IMG/VR virus record: IMGVR_UViG_3300033994_001756
Location: 108,254 to 172,253 of that record
Reading direction: 5' to 3' (one strand)
From: a virus
Length of the DNA stretch: 64,000 bases
The notes below the pieces were generated by a model. It had not been told where the DNA came from and did not search any database. It worked only from the letters and a program-made list of their open reading frames with translations. This document shows, piece after piece, positions 8,707 to 17,143 of this stretch. How positions within the stretch are numbered: position 1 is the first letter of the stretch; every line of letters starts with the position of its first letter. The position numbers and the translations under genes were made by a program.

Positions 8707-8745
8707 AAATATTTTATGATAAGCCTTTTATAATAAGTATTTATG
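8704..8745. promoter_or_regulatory. pair of overlapping, oppositely oriented late promoters
   Basis: CATAAATA on + (8704-8711) and on - (8745-8738); each overlaps the start codon of the opposite gene. Confidence 0.8.
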
Positions 8746-9180
8746 AATACTCTAAAGGGAAAATTTACCCCAACGAATATTCGCAAATATAAAGGAGACT
8801 ATAGGAATATAATTTATAGGTCTTCCTGGGAATTAAAGTTTATGAAGTACTGTGATACTAGATCTAATGTATTAGAATGGGCATCAGAAGAATGTGTTAT
8901 TCCATATAGATCTCCATTAGATAATAAAATTCATAGATACTTTGTTGATTTTTATGCTAAAATTCAAGAAGCTGATGGCACTATCACTAAGTATTTGATT
9001 GAAATAAAACCCAGTAAACAAACAGTTCCACCAAAGAAACCTCAAAGACAAACTAAAAGTTATATCTATGAAGTGACTGAATACGTTAAGAATCAAGCTA
9101 AGTGGAAAGCTGCCAAAGAATTCTGTGATGATAGAATGTGGAAATTTAAAATTCTCACGGAATCGGAGCTAAAGGTATGA
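8743..9180 (+). CDS. gp4: head completion nuclease gp4
   Basis: YRSSWELKFM, WASEE, HRYFVDF, EIKP and NQAKW motifs. Confidence 0.95.
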   Translation: MNTLKGKFTPTNIRKYKGDYRNIIYRSSWELKFMKYCDTRSNVLEWASEECVIPYRSPLDNKIHRYFVDFYAKIQEADGTITKYLIEIKPSKQTVPPKKPQRQTKSYIYEVTEYVKNQAKWKAAKEFCDDRMWKFKILTESELKV

Positions 9181-9740
9181 GAAGAGAAGTATCAGCTAGA
9201 ACAAAAAATACGTCACCACTTAATATATTTGAACAGGTAGATGAAATAGCAAATAAAAAACGAAAAGGATTTCATGTCCTATCATATAGTTGGTATAAAG
9301 ATACTGTTGCTGAAGTTGCTAGAAAGAATGATATTTACAAAACATTAGTTACGCTTGATGAAACTCTCATTCCTTCTGGGGGAAATCTGTATTTGTTTGA
9401 GTATAAAGCAACTTGGGCTAGAAAACTTCCATATTATGATGAGTTTCCTTTAGTGTACATGTTACAGGGTGGGAGGAAATTTTTTGGAGCTAATCTTCAC
9501 TATTTAAATTATCCAACACGTTATAAAGTTCTACAGAGTATTATAGATGGACGACCAACAATTCCTAAGCAGTGCTTTCATAATTATGTTTATGAAGGTC
9601 TTGATACACCACTATTTAAAATAAATAGTGACGACTGGATGAAATCTATTTTTCTACCACTTGAAAGTTTTGTAAGTAGACAAGCAGGTTCATATAAGCA
9701 AGTTAGTAAATCCTTTGTCTGGGGAGACAGCCGTAAATGA
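9177..9740 (+). CDS. gp2: DNA end-protector protein gp2
   Basis: LPYYDEFPLV and GANLHYL motifs; follows gp4. Confidence 0.85.
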   Translation: MRREVSARTKNTSPLNIFEQVDEIANKKRKGFHVLSYSWYKDTVAEVARKNDIYKTLVTLDETLIPSGGNLYLFEYKATWARKLPYYDEFPLVYMLQGGRKFFGANLHYLNYPTRYKVLQSIIDGRPTIPKQCFHNYVYEGLDTPLFKINSDDWMKSIFLPLESFVSRQAGSYKQVSKSFVWGDSRK

Positions 9741-10570
9741 GCATCAATACTACTCCTACAAATTTTAAAGAGTTCAAAGGTTTTGTACAAAAGCATGGCT
9801 TTTCATTAAGTAACTTTTATGATGTGCAATTTTATCTTAGTAATGATTCTAGTAACTCTCAACTATTAAAAAATATATTTAATCTTGGGATGTCTGGTAA
9901 TCCAAATAATACCAGTGCGTCTTTTATGGAAGGACTTTTAAGATTGTATGCGGATGAATGTTCTATTCCTGGATACTCAATTTCAACTGGAGATTATAGA
10001 ATAACCAATACTCCATCAATGAAATATGCATACGGTATAGTAAACAATGAAATCACAATATCATTTATTTTAGATGCAGATGCTGAGATCAGAAGAATAT
10101 TTGATGCCTGGGGTAATTATATTTACGGTAGTGTTTCATTGGCAGGAGGAGTTGTATCAAATACTAATTTGAATTTTACTACTAAAATAGATCTTGGAAG
10201 AACTAGATATCGTGATGATTATGTAACAGATATTGTTGTGGCTAAATTGGAAAGACATAGAAGCAGTAAGAAAAATACTAGACCACGAGTTACTAATATT
10301 GATTCACAACGTAACTTCTATGATAACAAACAAATTATACCAGATTATAATGGACCACTTCTTCCTGGATTTGGAAAACCATTTTACACATATTCAGTTA
10401 GGCTGAGGAATTGTTTTCCTACCACTATCTCTTCAATTCCATTGTCCAGTGGATCTTCTCAGTTAGTTAGAGTGCAGGTAACATTTGAATATGAACTTGC
10501 AGTGCCATCATCTCAAACTGCAGGTGGAAGTGTTCTGGAAGCATCAAACTGGTTACAGATAACTAACTAA
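9737..10570 (+). CDS. tail-tube-fold protein (gp54-like tail tube initiator)
   Basis: ECSIPG, IFDAW and NCFPTTISSIPLS...VTFEYE tube-protein motifs; lies between gp2 and gp26. Confidence 0.65.
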   Translation: MSINTTPTNFKEFKGFVQKHGFSLSNFYDVQFYLSNDSSNSQLLKNIFNLGMSGNPNNTSASFMEGLLRLYADECSIPGYSISTGDYRITNTPSMKYAYGIVNNEITISFILDADAEIRRIFDAWGNYIYGSVSLAGGVVSNTNLNFTTKIDLGRTRYRDDYVTDIVVAKLERHRSSKKNTRPRVTNIDSQRNFYDNKQIIPDYNGPLLPGFGKPFYTYSVRLRNCFPTTISSIPLSSGSSQLVRVQVTFEYELAVPSSQTAGGSVLEASNWLQITN

Positions 10571-10605: not shown

Positions 10606-11316
10606 ATGCCTTTACCTAAAATTGTAACTCCGACGTATGAATTGCGTTTACCATCAACTGATCAATTAATTAAATATAGACCATTTCTAGTAAAAGAAGA
10701 AAAAGTTCTTCTGATGGCGATGGAATCTGAAGATGAATCTCAGATGATTAATGCAGTGAAAACCATCCTAAGAAATTGCATTAACTCTAAAATTAAAGTT
10801 GATGACCTAGCAGTATTTGATATCGAATATTTGTTCCTCAATATTCGTGCTAAGTCTGTGGGAGAACAAATCGAACTCAACATCACTTGCCCAGATGATG
10901 GGGAAACTACAGTTCCACTAGAGATTAATGTTGAGGATATTCAGATTCAAAAGTCTGAAGATCATTCTAGAATTATTTCATTGAATGATACTATTTCTGT
11001 TGTAATGAAATACCCTAGTATGGAAATGTTTGTTAAGTCAAACTTTACAGCTAGTGTAAAAACTGAAGACGTATTTGAGATTGCTGCATCTTGCATTGAA
11101 CAAGTTGTAGAAGGGGAAGATGTTTATGAAACCAAGAGTTTCTCTAAAAAAGAAATTAACGATTTCCTTGATAGCTTAGATACTGCACAGTTTTTACTGA
11201 TTCAAAAATTCTTTGAGACTATGCCAAAGCTATCTCATACAGTTAAGGTTACTAACCCAGTAACAAATGTAGAAAGTGATGTGGTACTAGAAGGTCTTGC
11301 AGCTTTTTTCGCATAG
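10606..11316 (+). CDS. gp26: baseplate hub subunit/assembly protein gp26
   Basis: MPLPKI, YRPFLVKEEK, IRAKSVGE, FFETMPKL motifs; ends EGLAAFFA. Confidence 0.93.
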   Translation: MPLPKIVTPTYELRLPSTDQLIKYRPFLVKEEKVLLMAMESEDESQMINAVKTILRNCINSKIKVDDLAVFDIEYLFLNIRAKSVGEQIELNITCPDDGETTVPLEINVEDIQIQKSEDHSRIISLNDTISVVMKYPSMEMFVKSNFTASVKTEDVFEIAASCIEQVVEGEDVYETKSFSKKEINDFLDSLDTAQFLLIQKFFETMPKLSHTVKVTNPVTNVESDVVLEGLAAFFA

Positions 11317-11337
11317 CCCTAGCGCACGAATCGCTAG
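11304..11337 (+). promoter_or_regulatory. putative -1 ribosomal frameshift signal (slippery heptamer plus hairpin)
   Basis: T TTT TTC (11304-11310) in the gp26 frame, 8-nt spacer, then CTAGCG-7 nt-CGCTAG stem-loop (11319-11337). Confidence 0.7.
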
Positions 11338-11498
11338 AAAATTACTTTAGAATTAATTTTATATTACTTCAACATCATAAGTGGTCTCTTTCCGAAATTG
11401 AATGTATGTTACCATGGGAAAGAGAAATTTATGTTCAGATGTTAGTTGACTATATTGAAGAGGAAAATAATAGAAACAGAACAACAACATCGTTGTAG
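11304..11498 (+). CDS. gp51: baseplate hub assembly catalyst gp51 frame (no canonical start; probably reached by frameshift from gp26)
   Basis: -1 frame reads FFRIALAHESLENYFRINFILLQHHKWSLSEIECMLPWEREIYVQML...; open 11280-11498; missing from the ORF track. Confidence 0.85.
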   Translation, partial: FFRIALAHESLENYFRINFILLQHHKWSLSEIECMLPWEREIYVQMLVDYIEEENNRNRTTTSL

Positions 11499-11502
11499 TT
11501 AA

Positions 11503-14163
11503 ATGCCAGCCAGACAAACTCAGACATCATTTAGATCATTTTCTGAGTCACTCAGATCTAGAAGACTATCTCCAGTAAATCCATCTGCGATTACTGGAGG
11601 GAGAGTGTCTGGCGCAAATATTACAAAGAAAGAAGTAGAAGAATTCGGCCAGGTCAGAAAAATCCTTGGTGGATTATTAGCATTAGAGAAAAGATATTAT
11701 CAATTTTTAGGGGATAGGATTCTACATTTTGCTAAAGAAGACGAAAGAAATAAATTAAAGCAAGAAGAGTCTGAGCAAGAAAAGAAAAAGAAACTAGGAA
11801 AGGATAAAGAAAAGAACCCTGTTTTAGAAAAAGCAAAGTCTGATCTATCAATGATCGGAGGATTCTTCAAAAATCTTCTGAAGTTTTTCGTTGGGTATAA
11901 AGTTCTTGAGTGGGCATCCAAAAAAGAAAACATAAGCAAAATTCAAGACTTTGCCAATCTATTCATAACGTTATTTAAATTCATTAGTGCAGTCACCAAC
12001 TTTGGTGTTGATGTATTAATGAAAACTCTTACGGTTACTTCTAAAGTAATCAATGGAGTCTTTGATTTCATAGGAAAGGTAGCAGAATTTTTCAGCTTTA
12101 GTTGGCTGGGCGGTGGAGTAGAATGGCTATTATCCACCATTGAAAATGCTACTTCTGTTATTGCAAGTATTCCAAATGCAATTACATTAGCAGTAAAATT
12201 CATGACTGATTTGATTCCAAATTTCCTGGAATCAGTTTTAACCCAAGGACTATTTGGTAGCCAGAAAGAACTAGAAGGTCAGGCTGATCAAGCAGTAGAA
12301 GCAAAGAAACCAGCAGAACCACAGACTCCATCAACAGAATCTGATACTGGTAAAAAAGATCTAGGAGAAAAGGCAAAAGAATCACTTTCTAATATTGGAA
12401 AGAACATCCTGAAGACTCTGTTCCCAGGGATGGATGTTGCTGCGAATATTGGAGCCAAGATTGGTGGTTCTATTAAATCATTATTCAGTGGACCTAAAAC
12501 TCAAGAGTCTCTTCCTAAGTTAGCTAAGGGTGGTATCGTAACTAAACCAACTGAAGCGATTGTTGGTGAGGCAGGACCAGAAGCAATTCTTCCACTGGAT
12601 AAATTGGGATCATTTGGTATTGATGGCTTCAAGGCATCTACCAATAAGATGATTCCTAAATTCATGAAGCTATTGACTTTACCATTTAATATTGTTGGTG
12701 CAGGAATCGTAGCATTAATTTCATCTGCAGTATCTAAAATTCCTGGTGTAGGACAATTTATACTTCCACTGATTTCTAATATTGCATCTAGCTTTGGTTT
12801 GCCTGCAGGATTGGTTGCGGGAATGAGTAATTTTGTAGGTGGTGTTACATCTGCAATTTCTGGAGGACTTGGCAATGTAGCTGAATTATTTGGGAAGAAT
12901 GAAGTCAATATACGTCAGCAGAAAGGAGAAGAGTTTTCTCCAACCAATGATACTTCAGTTAAAGGATTACTTGGAAACATTCTTGGTGCTCTGATCAGCA
13001 AGCAAAAGAAAGCTGCCACCACACCTGGAACCACGCCTCCTCCACCCCCTTCCACCCCACCAGCCCCATCTGGAACCCCTTCTAGTGGCACTTCAGGGAG
13101 CACTCCTCCAGCTACTAAGCCGAGTTCCATATTCACGTATCCAACTCAAGGAGAGGGTGGTGTTCCTGGGCAAGGCGGTGGAGATAAAATTCCTGCATTG
13201 TTAGAACCTCAAGAGTATGTCCTGAATCGAAATGCTGTCAAGGGAATGGGTGGTCCAAAAGTATTAGATGCTATTAACTATGGAATGTATCCAAGATTTG
13301 GTAGTGGTGGTCCAAATGTTTCAACTAAAAAGTTTTTAAAGCTTGGTGGTGGATGGGCTCCTGTACCAGAAGATTCTTCTGGTGTATCGTTAGGCAGAGG
13401 AATGAGTTCACGACATGGCGGAACAGATATTCCAATGCCAGTAGGAACTCCGCTACTTGCACCTTTCGATGGAATGGTGAAAGAAACCGGAAAGAATCCT
13501 GATGGGTGGGGAAATTTCATGGTATTAAAAAGTTCCAATGGAGTTTATTCTCTGTTTGGACATGTAAGTGATTATTCTAAAAAGCAAGGTGAACAAATTA
13601 AAGCGGGTGAACAAGTTGCATTAAGTGGGCATCGACATGGAGGAGGAAGAAGTAGTGGACCACATTTACATTGGGAAATTGGTAGTTCTTGGAATGGAAC
13701 TATTGGTGGAAAGATAGATCCAATTAGTTGGTCCTCTGGCAAAGCTATTCCATCTGTAAGTGGAAAAACATCATCCAGAACTAATACAGACTCTCCTGAT
13801 GATTCCACAGAATCTACACCAACATTTACTGCTGAGATGGGAGCCAAAGCTGCTGAGCAGTTGGGCAAACTATTCCAGATGTTAAATGGTCCTGCACCCA
13901 CTACAGTCCCAGAAGTTACCACTCCGCAGACTCCTAAAATAACAACTGCAGTTTCTGGAAACTCCCAAAATCTACAGAGAGTTCAGAGAGAAAATCTAAA
14001 AGTTCAGGCTCAAGCTAAACAGCAAACTAAAGCTGGTGGTAATGTAATAACTCTAGGCGAGCCAAATAAAACTATTACAGAATCAAGATCTCAACCAATG
14101 ACATCTACATTAGGAGGCACAACTCCACCGAATTCATTAATCAATTATCCATTAGCACCATAA
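11503..14163 (+). CDS. tape-measure-like tail protein with M23 peptidase domain
   Basis: LAKGGIVTKPT...GEAGPEAILPL and GGGDKIPALLEPQEYVL tape-measure-type motifs; M23 motifs HGGTD and GPHLHWE. Confidence 0.75.
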   Translation: MPARQTQTSFRSFSESLRSRRLSPVNPSAITGGRVSGANITKKEVEEFGQVRKILGGLLALEKRYYQFLGDRILHFAKEDERNKLKQEESEQEKKKKLGKDKEKNPVLEKAKSDLSMIGGFFKNLLKFFVGYKVLEWASKKENISKIQDFANLFITLFKFISAVTNFGVDVLMKTLTVTSKVINGVFDFIGKVAEFFSFSWLGGGVEWLLSTIENATSVIASIPNAITLAVKFMTDLIPNFLESVLTQGLFGSQKELEGQADQAVEAKKPAEPQTPSTESDTGKKDLGEKAKESLSNIGKNILKTLFPGMDVAANIGAKIGGSIKSLFSGPKTQESLPKLAKGGIVTKPTEAIVGEAGPEAILPLDKLGSFGIDGFKASTNKMIPKFMKLLTLPFNIVGAGIVALISSAVSKIPGVGQFILPLISNIASSFGLPAGLVAGMSNFVGGVTSAISGGLGNVAELFGKNEVNIRQQKGEEFSPTNDTSVKGLLGNILGALISKQKKAATTPGTTPPPPPSTPPAPSGTPSSGTSGSTPPATKPSSIFTYPTQGEGGVPGQGGGDKIPALLEPQEYVLNRNAVKGMGGPKVLDAINYGMYPRFGSGGPNVSTKKFLKLGGGWAPVPEDSSGVSLGRGMSSRHGGTDIPMPVGTPLLAPFDGMVKETGKNPDGWGNFMVLKSSNGVYSLFGHVSDYSKKQGEQIKAGEQVALSGHRHGGGRSSGPHLHWEIGSSWNGTIGGKIDPISWSSGKAIPSVSGKTSSRTNTDSPDDSTESTPTFTAEMGAKAAEQLGKLFQMLNGPAPTTVPEVTTPQTPKITTAVSGNSQNLQRVQRENLKVQAQAKQQTKAGGNVITLGEPNKTITESRSQPMTSTLGGTTPPNSLINYPLAP

Positions 14164-14164
14164 A

Positions 14165-17143
14165 ATGGAAAACTTAACACCAGTTAGACCAGCTTCCATT
14201 ATAGGTAATAGTCGTCTAAGAGAAATCAAGACGATAAAGGGTATTGCACAAGATTTAGTAAAGCAGAAAAAACAGAATTTTGAATTGGAAAAAAAATTCT
14301 TCAAAATTCAAAAGGATACTATTGATAGAAATAAATTAAGAGACAAAGAAAGACTTCAGGAAGCAAAGAAACCAAAAAGAAAAGCTGGATTTGTTCGTGA
14401 AGAACTTAAAGATAAGTCTATAAAACTATTTGATTTGTTCAAGTTCTTTGTAGGATATAAAGTATTACAGTGGATGTCTCGCAAAGAGAATATTGAATCT
14501 ATTGGCGAAATCGCCAAAGCCATGAAAAATATTTTTAAGATTATAGATCATCTTGCTGGTATTGGAGTTGAAGGAGTTCTTGGTGGACTTCATAGTGTTC
14601 TATTTGGAAGCAACTTTTTAGAAAGATTTTTCGGAATATTTAAACTCATAGGTGGCTTTTTCATTATCAGGAGACTATTGTTTCCAGGTAAAATACTTAA
14701 AGACATTACTTGGATATTAAAGAATAGAAAGTCTATTGGTAAAGTATTCCAAGCATTAGGATCTGGAAAACTTAAAGAAGCTCTTGGAAGACTATTTAAA
14801 CTATTAACTCCAAATTTATATGTTGTATATACCAGAGGATTGACTGCAGGAGTTAAGCGAGTAATTCTTAAAGTATTTGGAAAGAATACTTTAAAACTCC
14901 TGACTAAGGTAGCTTCTAAAATTGGATTCAGAAGTGCAAAAGAGTTTGTAAAAAATACTGCAAAAAATATTGCCAAGCCTTTAACTAGAATACCTTTCAT
15001 TGGACCTATACTTGGCTTTGGATTAAATCTAATTTTTGGTGATCCACTAGACAAGGCTGCAGTCAAAGCAATTGGTGCTGGGATTGGAGCATGGCTAGGT
15101 GGTATTGTAATGGGCGCATTGGGAAGCATCGTTCCTGTTGCAGGAACTGCAGCTGGTGCTGGACTTGGTGCATTTGTTGGTGGATTTATTGGAGACTGGG
15201 TTGGTGATAAATTATACGGATTCTTTAAAGGATTCACCGCACCTAAAGAACCTGCACTTGCTGTTGGTGGTATTGTAACCAAGCCAACCAGGGCTTTGAT
15301 TGGTGAGGCTGGGCCAGAAGCAGTTATTCCGCTACCAAAAATTTATGATAGAACTATATTAAATGCTCCTATGGGTATAGTTGCATCTTCTATGATTGGG
15401 GGGATAGATGCAGTTATATCTTCATTGGGTCCTGTTGGCTTAACGATTAGACCATATGCATCTAGTTTACTAGCTCCATACAGAAGAGAGTTTGGATCTA
15501 CCAACTATGTGTTCACTTCTAATATTGGAGGTAAGACTACACCTTTAACTACTAAACTTCCAGAGCAAAATGACAACGAGGAAGTTGCTAAAATACTTGG
15601 TCTGAATAAAACCATTAATTTAATCAAGAAAAAGGAAACTGCAGAAGAGGCTAAAAAAGCCAGATACAATTCTGGGAATAGTGTTCGTGAAATTCTTGGA
15701 GATATTCTAAACAATATTATCAATCTAGACTTTACTAAAAAGTCTAAAAAGAAAACACGCCCAGGTGATACAACTAGAAATGGGGATATTGGTGAAGTTG
15801 GTGGGGAAGTAGATTTATCTGACGCTGACGATAGAACTTTATTAAAGCAACTAGCACTTGCAGAAGCTGCAGGTGAAGGTGTTGTTGGAATGGCATTGGT
15901 TGTCAATTCTGTGTTGAATAGAAAGCGAATTTTAGATGGTGGTGCTTCTCCTGGATTATTCCATGCAACTGATAAAACTATTCGTGGAATAATATACGCC
16001 AAAGACAGTGTTCAATATACTCCAGTTCAAAGTGGCACTATTAACAAGCAGTGGGGTGAAGGATCACTGAACCTTGCAGAGAAAGCTTTGCAAATGGGAA
16101 TGGATAAGTCTAAGTTGAGACAAGCATTGGAAGCTGAAGGAGTTAGTGAAAATAGTATAAAATTTCTAATCAATTCAACTGGATTTAGAAACTATGATGC
16201 AGGTGCAAGCAATGATAGATCTCAGAAGGTTAATGAGACTGTATATAAACGGCACACCTTTAATACTGCGGGTGTCCCTAAGATGCAACAAGGTGGTTTA
16301 GTTTCAAGAGGAGATATTACGAGTAAGTTTGGAAATAAAGAATCATTTAGAAAAAATTCTCATGAAGGAATTGATATTGCATTTCCATCTGGAACTCCTT
16401 TATCATTTACTTTAGGTGGAAAATTTCTTAAAGTTGCTAGAAGTTCCAGTAAAGAAAGAGAAGCAAATGGTGGCTATGGTCAATACATGGATCTTAAGTT
16501 ATCCGATGGAAAGATTGCCAGACTTGCACACCTAAGCTCTATCCCCAATTGGGTAAAGCAGGGTGGCGATTTCACACCAAATGCAATTGTTGCATTAAGT
16601 GGTGGCGCACCAGGAGCACCTGGCTCTGGTAGATCTGGTGGGCCACATTTACATTTAGAGCAACACACAACTCAAAAAGATTTAGCAGAGACTTTAAATG
16701 GTAAGGTTGATCCATTATCACAAGGTCTATTTGGATTATTGAGGAAAGGTGGTGCCCCTGGAAGTGCAACTAGTGGACCTGCTCAACCTTCACAATCTCC
16801 AGCTGCATCCCCGAATACAGTAAAAGAGTCGGAAGAATCTCAGCAAGAATCGCAACCGCCACCAATTAATTATGATGACATTGCTAAAAATCTAGGAGAA
16901 TTGTTCCAGATGTTAACTGGAACTCCAAAGACAAATGGTGCTCAGTTACAAAAAAATAGTATGGATTATGTCCAAGCATTCAAAGACTTCAAGCCAAATC
17001 CAGATACATATATTATGATGGGTGGAACTAATATAATTTCAAGTACTACATTGTTGACTCCAATTGAGCAACTAGATTATTCTTCTGGATCATTCTCAAG
17101 TATAGATAGCGCAACTGCGTTTAAACTCAACACAAGACTCTAA
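14165..17143 (+). CDS. tape-measure-like tail protein with SleB-like cell-wall hydrolase and M23 peptidase domains
   Basis: paralog of the preceding gene; AEAAGEGVVGMALVVNSVLNR (Hydrolase_2-like); HEGID and GPHLHLE (M23). Confidence 0.75.
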   Translation: MENLTPVRPASIIGNSRLREIKTIKGIAQDLVKQKKQNFELEKKFFKIQKDTIDRNKLRDKERLQEAKKPKRKAGFVREELKDKSIKLFDLFKFFVGYKVLQWMSRKENIESIGEIAKAMKNIFKIIDHLAGIGVEGVLGGLHSVLFGSNFLERFFGIFKLIGGFFIIRRLLFPGKILKDITWILKNRKSIGKVFQALGSGKLKEALGRLFKLLTPNLYVVYTRGLTAGVKRVILKVFGKNTLKLLTKVASKIGFRSAKEFVKNTAKNIAKPLTRIPFIGPILGFGLNLIFGDPLDKAAVKAIGAGIGAWLGGIVMGALGSIVPVAGTAAGAGLGAFVGGFIGDWVGDKLYGFFKGFTAPKEPALAVGGIVTKPTRALIGEAGPEAVIPLPKIYDRTILNAPMGIVASSMIGGIDAVISSLGPVGLTIRPYASSLLAPYRREFGSTNYVFTSNIGGKTTPLTTKLPEQNDNEEVAKILGLNKTINLIKKKETAEEAKKARYNSGNSVREILGDILNNIINLDFTKKSKKKTRPGDTTRNGDIGEVGGEVDLSDADDRTLLKQLALAEAAGEGVVGMALVVNSVLNRKRILDGGASPGLFHATDKTIRGIIYAKDSVQYTPVQSGTINKQWGEGSLNLAEKALQMGMDKSKLRQALEAEGVSENSIKFLINSTGFRNYDAGASNDRSQKVNETVYKRHTFNTAGVPKMQQGGLVSRGDITSKFGNKESFRKNSHEGIDIAFPSGTPLSFTLGGKFLKVARSSSKEREANGGYGQYMDLKLSDGKIARLAHLSSIPNWVKQGGDFTPNAIVALSGGAPGAPGSGRSGGPHLHLEQHTTQKDLAETLNGKVDPLSQGLFGLLRKGGAPGSATSGPAQPSQSPAASPNTVKESEESQQESQPPPINYDDIAKNLGELFQMLTGTPKTNGAQLQKNSMDYVQAFKDFKPNPDTYIMMGGTNIISSTTLLTPIEQLDYSSGSFSSIDSATAFKLNTRL

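Follow-up and report, generated by a model that had tools for sequence, protein, structure and literature searches.

The window analysed here is a 64-kb stretch of a complete 172,253-bp viral genome with terminal repeats, and its gene 26 (gp26) lies between a gene for a tail-tube-like protein and two consecutive genes for tape-measure-like paralogues (Table 1). Homologs of the tube-like gene in related phages carry the annotation 'baseplate tail tube initiator', and the two tape-measure-like proteins share the motifs FFVGYKVL.W, in their N-terminal part, and GGIVTKPT.A..GEAGPEA..PL. This gene order, from the tube-like gene through gp26/51 to the two tape-measure-like genes, corresponds to the placement of a tail assembly chaperone pair and fits the canonical synteny of tube, chaperone and tape-measure genes, bearing in mind that the upstream gene belongs to the tube-initiator type and that the tape-measure assignment rests on weak PHROG matches and on the shared motifs. 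On the same basis, the first-pass annotation was right in placing the locus upstream of tape-measure-like genes, which encode proteins of 886 and 992 aa. The gp26 product aligned to positions 2–219 of the 219 in the PF12322 profile with 248 bits (cutoff 24.5), and is therefore a full-length member of this family. The whole 172-kb genome contains one gp26 and one gp51 domain, neither of them duplicated, and a search for a separate long gp51 gene across the complete genome found none. Further upstream, a homolog of the head-completion protein gp4 (8743–9180) matches phrog_218 (5e-60) and, in addition, the N-terminal domain of TnsA-like endonucleases in Pfam (3.7e-22).

Table 1. Features of the gp26/gp51 locus, with positions in the window.
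Feature	Coordinates	Strand	Description
Tail-tube-like gene	9737..10570	+	277 aa, directly upstream of gp26; Pfam Phage_TTP_2 1.1e-13, phrog_45 tail tube 1.5e-31
gp26, predicted short chaperone form (TAC-N)	10606..11316	+	236 aa; PF12322 T4_baseplate 1e-73, phrog_150 7e-82
Shine-Dalgarno-like element, putative	11290..11295	+	GAAGGT here (weak), GAGGGN in most relatives; 10 nt before the heptamer
Slippery heptamer T_TTT_TTC	11304-11310	+	X_XXY_YYZ phase; one codon before the gp26 stop
-1 frame extension, gp51-like C-terminal domain	11310..11498	+	starts at the last base of the heptamer; stop TAG 11496-11498; phrog_634 2e-26
Hairpin, possible stimulator	11319..11337	+	CTAGCG 11319-11324 / CGCTAG 11332-11337, 6-bp stem, 7-nt loop
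First tape-measure-like protein	11503..14163	+	886 aa; M23 peptidase domain PF01551 7e-21; weak tape-measure PHROG matches
Second tape-measure-like paralogue	14165..17143	+	992 aa; M23 and cell-wall-hydrolase-like domains

The 3′ end of gp26 reads GCT (11302) TTT TTC GCA TAG (11314–11316), and thus contains the in-phase heptamer T_TTT_TTC that the first-pass annotation had singled out as a slippery site. Its claims about the overlapping frame also hold: the -1 frame stays open between 11280 and 11498, reads ...FFRIALAHESLENYFRINFILLQHHKWSLSEIECMLPWEREIY..., and lacks any ATG, GTG or TTG until the ATG at 11406 (MLPW), which is 34 codons past the heptamer and midway through the conserved gp51 domain. 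The gp51-like nature of the C-terminal domain encoded by this extension, RIALAHESLENYFRINF...MLPWEREIY..., is confirmed by its match to phrog_634 ('baseplate hub assembly catalyst'; Table 1); a further match of the -1 peptide is to the C-terminal tail of phrog_150 ('baseplate hub'). A gp26-gp51 fusion produced at the heptamer would have 297 aa (about 34 kDa), the same length that had been anticipated, with the junction peptide ...GLAAFFRIALAHESLENYFR. The heptamer is separated by an 8-nt spacer, GCATAGCC, from the stem of a potential hairpin.

The comparative sample comprised 80 IMG/VR loci and GenBank records from more distant hosts, namely four cyanophages and phages of Pelagibacter, Vibrio, Aeromonas, Caulobacter, Sinorhizobium, Pseudomonas and Stenotrophomonas. 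The order gp26 then gp51 was found in 92 loci, corresponding to 75 distinct junction sequences and extending down to about 20–30% gp26 identity. All but one of these loci (91 of 92) have an in-phase TTTTTT[C/T] where the long ORF ends, followed by a -1 ORF exceeding 40 codons, and a nearby 0-frame stop, and the sole locus without the signal is cut by its own contig end. Among the distinct junctions, the heptamer is T_TTT_TTC in 73 and T_TTT_TTT in two, with a run of seven T in two lineages; gp51 lies always in the -1 frame, never in the +1 frame and never in frame; and the 0-frame stop follows one codon after the heptamer in 64 cases, two codons in nine, immediately in one and eight codons in one. 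Only six other TTTTTTY sequences, counting any phase, occur in the same gp26 ORFs, and at the level of these alignments the conservation of the in-phase heptamer exceeds chance. This alignment of gp26 3′ ends from T4-like phages was the check proposed with the first-pass annotation, and the pattern, in-phase T_TTT_TTY with gp51 in the -1 frame, was present in 75 of 75 distinct junctions; homologs lacking the heptamer or with gp51 in another frame, which it had named as counter-evidence, were not seen among them. Likewise, tblastn with the -1 peptide retrieved matches in 576 phage records, beginning at the FFR of the heptamer. The -1 ORF is intact in all 91 loci, and its conservation at the protein level reaches phages of Vibrio and Rhizobium. 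Pelagibacter phage Mosig (L085, 1201–1234) has the only junction whose 0-frame runs eight codons past the heptamer; within this overlap the -1 frame is conserved (FFRIALSHDSLENFF) and the 0-frame tail VLPSLTTA is not.

Codon choice indicates that the heptamer does not merely encode Phe-Phe. The codon preceding it ends in T in all 75 junctions, be it GCT, TCT, AGT, GAT or AAT (for Ala, Ser, Asp or Asn), against a background of 39–81% T-ending codons for these amino acids elsewhere in the same genes (P = 1e-17, a value that assumes independent junctions, which these are not). Additionally, a second conserved Phe-Phe of gp26, in the motif QKFFETM, is encoded in 70 cases by TTC TTT (46), TTT TTT (15) or TTC TTC (9), and never by TTT TTC. 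Finally, in T4 and in Enterobacter phage IME523 the homologous GLKEFF motif is encoded with the non-slippery GAG TTC TTT; in both phages gp25 follows gp26, and the opposite strand carries gene 51 as a gene of its own (249 aa). The slippery nucleotides are present wherever gp51 sits in the -1 frame behind gp26, and absent from the T4 and IME523 loci, so that the T4 arrangement may be regarded as a natural control that supports a role for the heptamer. In the record of T4 'wild' (KJ477684.1; L090, 668–1417, minus strand) there is no annotated feature over gene 51, despite an intact 249-aa ORF, so that a reference-type record has a gap in its annotation.

The -1 frame opens 0–57 nt ahead of the heptamer in the 75 junctions, and is start-less in that interval; in three lineages, a stop codon of this frame directly abuts the heptamer. 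The codon that follows the heptamer in the -1 frame, still upstream of the 0-frame stop, specifies Arg in 68 of the 75 junctions, and its position entropies (0.18, 0.55 and 1.66) reveal that variation occurs mostly at the third base, while over the following 18 codons the entropies are those usual for coding sequence (0.96/0.70/1.49). The conservation of this Arg, with variation of the third-position type, indicates selection on the -1 frame beginning at the heptamer. For 49 of the 75 junctions, the first ATG lies 14–35 codons into this frame, and a protein starting there would lose the conserved block RIALAHESLENYYKTNF; these lineages share with the phage in the window the start-less downstream ORF of a chaperone pair. 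Since the remaining 26 lineages contain an ATG 3–6 codons past the heptamer, a free gp51 could also arise in them. The annotation of 'gp51' in the databases is inconsistent, being a product of 57 aa in P-SSM2 and of 44 aa in S-T4 and Mosig, and missing in S-BM3 and ACG-2014d. In P-SSM2 (L002, 2215–2250), as well as in loci L039 and L043–L047, the ATG is five codons past the heptamer and forms part of the 5′ strand of a hairpin with an 11-bp stem (-15 kcal/mol, z about -5); such a location would hinder independent initiation, and the hairpin fits a frameshift stimulator.

The hairpin CTAGCG/CGCTAG described in the first-pass annotation as following 8 nt after the heptamer does exist in the window, but it is not significant on its own, with an MFE of -7.3 kcal/mol, a z of -1.29 and 20 of 200 shuffled sequences folding equally well. 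Across the 75 junctions, nevertheless, among 17 intervals compared, the 45 nt that directly follow the heptamer have the most structure, with a mean MFE of -8.1 kcal/mol vs. -2.0 to -6.7 kcal/mol, and values of -10 kcal/mol or lower are reached just 3′ of the heptamer in 40% of the junctions vs. 0–19% in the other intervals. The stems are lineage-specific: those of the P-SSM2 clade have 11 bp, those of a second marine clade 9–11 bp, that of Cr30 9 bp and that of the window 6 bp; their registers differ between clades, and about one-third of the lineages have no stem. A search for covariation across clades found no homologous base pair that covaries, and the clade of the window maintains its stem by sequence conservation, with one change from G-C to G-U and no double compensatory change. 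Rfam covariance models gave no match to positions 11,200–11,520 at E up to 1. Upstream, GAGG is found at offset -14, that is, 10 nt before the heptamer, in 53 of the 75 junctions, and this is by far the commonest position of a Shine-Dalgarno core within about 880 nt. The Glu codon at this position is GAG in 53 of 65 cases (82%), compared to a background of 32%. By analogy, the GAGG motif could be a Shine-Dalgarno stimulator like that of dnaX and, by their placement, it and the downstream hairpins are typical of ribosomal stimulators, with a putative function.

We built an HMM profile from 77 distinct conceptual gp26-gp51 fusions and searched it against T4-type proteins. T4 gp26 aligned to profile positions 11–237, ending at the junction, whereas T4 gp51 (residues 64–244) aligned across the junction, over positions 75–280, with 33.5 bits. 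Similarly, gp51 from IME523 (residues 103–247) gave 43.6 bits for the whole sequence, with a junction-spanning stretch of 37.7 bits over positions 134–283. The alignments of both gp51 proteins pair ...MIPAER with ...sFFrlalahesLenyyktnF...mlpwEr. From this colinear alignment through the junction, T4 gp51 can be viewed as a natural single-ORF counterpart of the predicted fusion, which also accounts for the double match of the -1 peptide to phrog_634 and phrog_150. An in-frame gp26-gp51 fusion of the cyanophage type was sought among longer proteins with the 64-aa peptide in a word-based search, which cannot reach T4 gp51, and none was found. The only match, P0001 (294 aa, from an ENA metagenome), was rejected: it is an ORF without relation to such a fusion, its start having been called at the internal MLPW ATG. 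This sequence begins with the MLPWEREVY... of a near-identical gp51 and continues with Cys-rich sequence unlike the tape-measure-like gene; it probably derives from a chimeric or mis-assembled contig, or from a variant locus.

An AlphaFold model of gp26 (23-sequence alignment, pLDDT 83) was compared exhaustively with 48,161 PDB representatives using VIA-align. The first three ranks were HK97 gp13 (2OB9, Z 6.9), YqbN (3KLU, Z 6.5) and Rbstp2171 (3FGX, Z 6.4), each aligning 84–85 residues onto residues 1–90 of gp26, and the fourth rank had a Z of 4.3. These three structures are the three solved tail assembly chaperones, so named in PMC9603447, and it is hard to ascribe to chance that one small family occupies the three top ranks of a comparison with this model. 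The modeled structure, with moderate Z values (<7), supports a tail assembly chaperone fold for the N-terminal part of gp26. A Foldseek search of the model against the PDB retrieved nothing at E 0.001 or better, and a Pfam search with gp26 and the -1 peptide found no match to a Phage_TAC family. The proposal of the first-pass annotation that gp26 and a gp26-gp51 fusion form the tail assembly chaperone pair of T4-like phages is thus supported by the comparative data, the T4 control and the fold match.

These analyses show the signal, its conservation and coding in the -1 frame from the heptamer onward; they also show that the fusion is homologous to the single-ORF gp51 of T4 and that gp26 has a chaperone fold. 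Recoding at the heptamer, giving gp26 and a gp26-gp51 fusion in a manner analogous to lambda G/GT, is very likely; its simplest reading, which we consider probable, is ribosomal -1 slippage on U_UUU_UUC. We infer that slippage takes place on the ribosome, as well as its efficiency and the binding partners of the products, and genes 26 and '51' would then form a single recoded gene whose product is an assembly chaperone of the tail or baseplate hub. The majority of ribosomes would stop at the TAG at 11314, producing the 236-aa short form (TAC-N). A minority would slip back by one base, the two tRNA-Phe on UUU UUC (11305–11310) re-pairing on UUU UUU (11304–11309), and would continue through CGC AUA GCC to the TAG at 11496, producing the 297-aa long form with the gp51 domain (TAC-NC). 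If the parallel with lambda G/GT holds, both forms would coat the downstream tape-measure-like proteins, the C-terminal domain of the long form would recruit tube or hub subunits, and neither form would remain in the virion.

The same proteins would result from transcriptional slippage, if RNA polymerase added one U on the T6 run so that some mRNAs encoded the fusion in frame, and the fusion alignment and the -1 coding data fit both mechanisms equally. The signal is indeed a homopolymer run, and two lineages have T7; however, T6 is short, since efficient bacterial transcriptional slippage takes runs of about 8–9 T or more. Additionally, the PRFect paper (PMC10885494) takes the title of Vladimirov et al. 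(2022) to mean the two separate genes of T4. The hairpins 5–9 nt downstream and the GAGG 10 nt upstream sit at the positions of ribosomal stimulators and also argue against slippage of the polymerase, which we regard as unlikely.

Another explanation is that gp51 is an independent small gene, translated from a non-canonical start, such as ATA 11313, or by reinitiation after termination at the gp26 stop. This would match the database annotation and the junction-near ATG of 26 lineages, and cyanophage genes often lack strong ribosome-binding sites. Nevertheless, the -1 frame of the window lacks ATG, GTG and TTG up to 11406, and none of the near-cognate codons is conserved from lineage to lineage; annotated starts vary between records, and S-BM3 and ACG-2014d carry no annotation of the ORF. 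An independent gene does not explain either why NNT TTT TTC is maintained, when Phe-Phe can be encoded otherwise, as in the TTC TTT of T4 and in the second Phe-Phe of gp26, or why the -1 frame retains Arg ahead of the 0-frame stop; T4 gp51 is itself a natural fusion, and the ATG of the P-SSM2 clade is buried in an 11-bp stem. We thus judge it quite improbable that gp51 is an independent gene; separate initiation is unlikely in this phage, and may add a free gp51 in the lineages with an ATG near the junction. Lastly, the absence of a start codon in this phage would also agree with the -1 ORF being what is left of a gp51 gene that has lost its start and is decaying without expression, but the ORF is intact in 91 loci, encodes a conserved protein with a codon-position pattern of variation and contains the only gp51 domain of the genome, all of which makes decay extremely improbable. 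In T4, genetics established that gp51 is essential for hub assembly.

Ribosomal frameshifting between gp26 and gp51, the reading that we favor, has most likely been published already by Vladimirov et al. (2022; Virology 566:9), judging from how two papers cite that work. The PRFect paper (PMC10885494) cites Vladimirov, Gautam and Davidson (2022) for some T4-like phages using a short gene plus a longer fusion gene in place of frameshifting, and the description of phage Adele (PMC12846349) cites it for 'polyT-containing sequences' as 'known -1 frameshift signals' in 'TAC-N genes of T4-like phages'. As worded by these citing papers, the two citations together describe the same two arrangements found here, recoding and separate genes. 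A search of open-access full text found no paper describing this gp26/gp51 site. There is a small but appreciable chance that Vladimirov et al. (2022), as reflected in its citations, covers only the two-gene solution of T4 or opposes ribosomal slippage, and that the frameshift described here is hence unreported. In such a case, the novelty would consist of a -1 ribosomal frameshift at a strictly conserved U_UUU_UUY in the gp26 of every T4-like phage outside the Tevenvirinae, with a dnaX-like build in which GAGG lies 10 nt upstream and the downstream hairpins are lineage-specific and evolve fast, and of T4 as a derived exception in which gene duplication replaced recoding. Conversely, if that article says what its citers report, our analysis adds little as a discovery and its main value is the correction of annotations. 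Because the recoded gp51 is start-less, it is given arbitrary starts, or no annotation at all, in hundreds of genomes from cyanophages, pelagiphages and vibriophages; we suggest that gp26 and gp51 be joined as one recoded gene and named tail assembly chaperone. The T4 superfamily would thereby follow the rule for long-tailed phages, by which a single locus yields tail assembly chaperones in a short and a long form, and would offer a clean natural comparison of recoding and gene duplication as two routes to the same protein pair.

In E. coli dnaX, the layout reportedly consists of a Shine-Dalgarno-like element, a slippery heptamer and a downstream hairpin, and the -1 frameshift yields the shorter product. 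Relatives of the phage in the window resemble this layout, most of them with GAGG 10 nt upstream and many with a stable hairpin 5–9 nt downstream, whereas the window itself carries only GAAGG and a 6-bp stem. With respect to T4, whose gp26 (208 aa) and gp51 (249 aa) are baseplate hub assembly proteins, gp26 is homologous to that of this phage (PF12322) and gp51 shares the C-terminal domain motif ..Y.IN..L....YSL..I..M.P.ER with the conceptual fusion; nevertheless, the two forms come from separate, divergently transcribed paralogous genes in T4 and from one locus with a slippery site in this phage. Another parallel is the -1 frameshift of lambda G/GT, which is said to be conserved in the chaperone genes of long-tailed phages. 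Both systems have an in-phase X_XXY_YYZ at the 3′ end of a short ORF followed by a start-less -1 extension, both pairs lie between tube-type and tape-measure genes, and the N-terminal part has the chaperone fold, predicted from a model in the case of gp26. However, gp26 is without sequence similarity to gpG and is about twice its size, with an extra domain of ~145 residues; its heptamer is U_UUU_UUC instead of the G_GGA_AAG of lambda, and the gene upstream is of the tube-initiator type, unlike the major tube gene of lambda.
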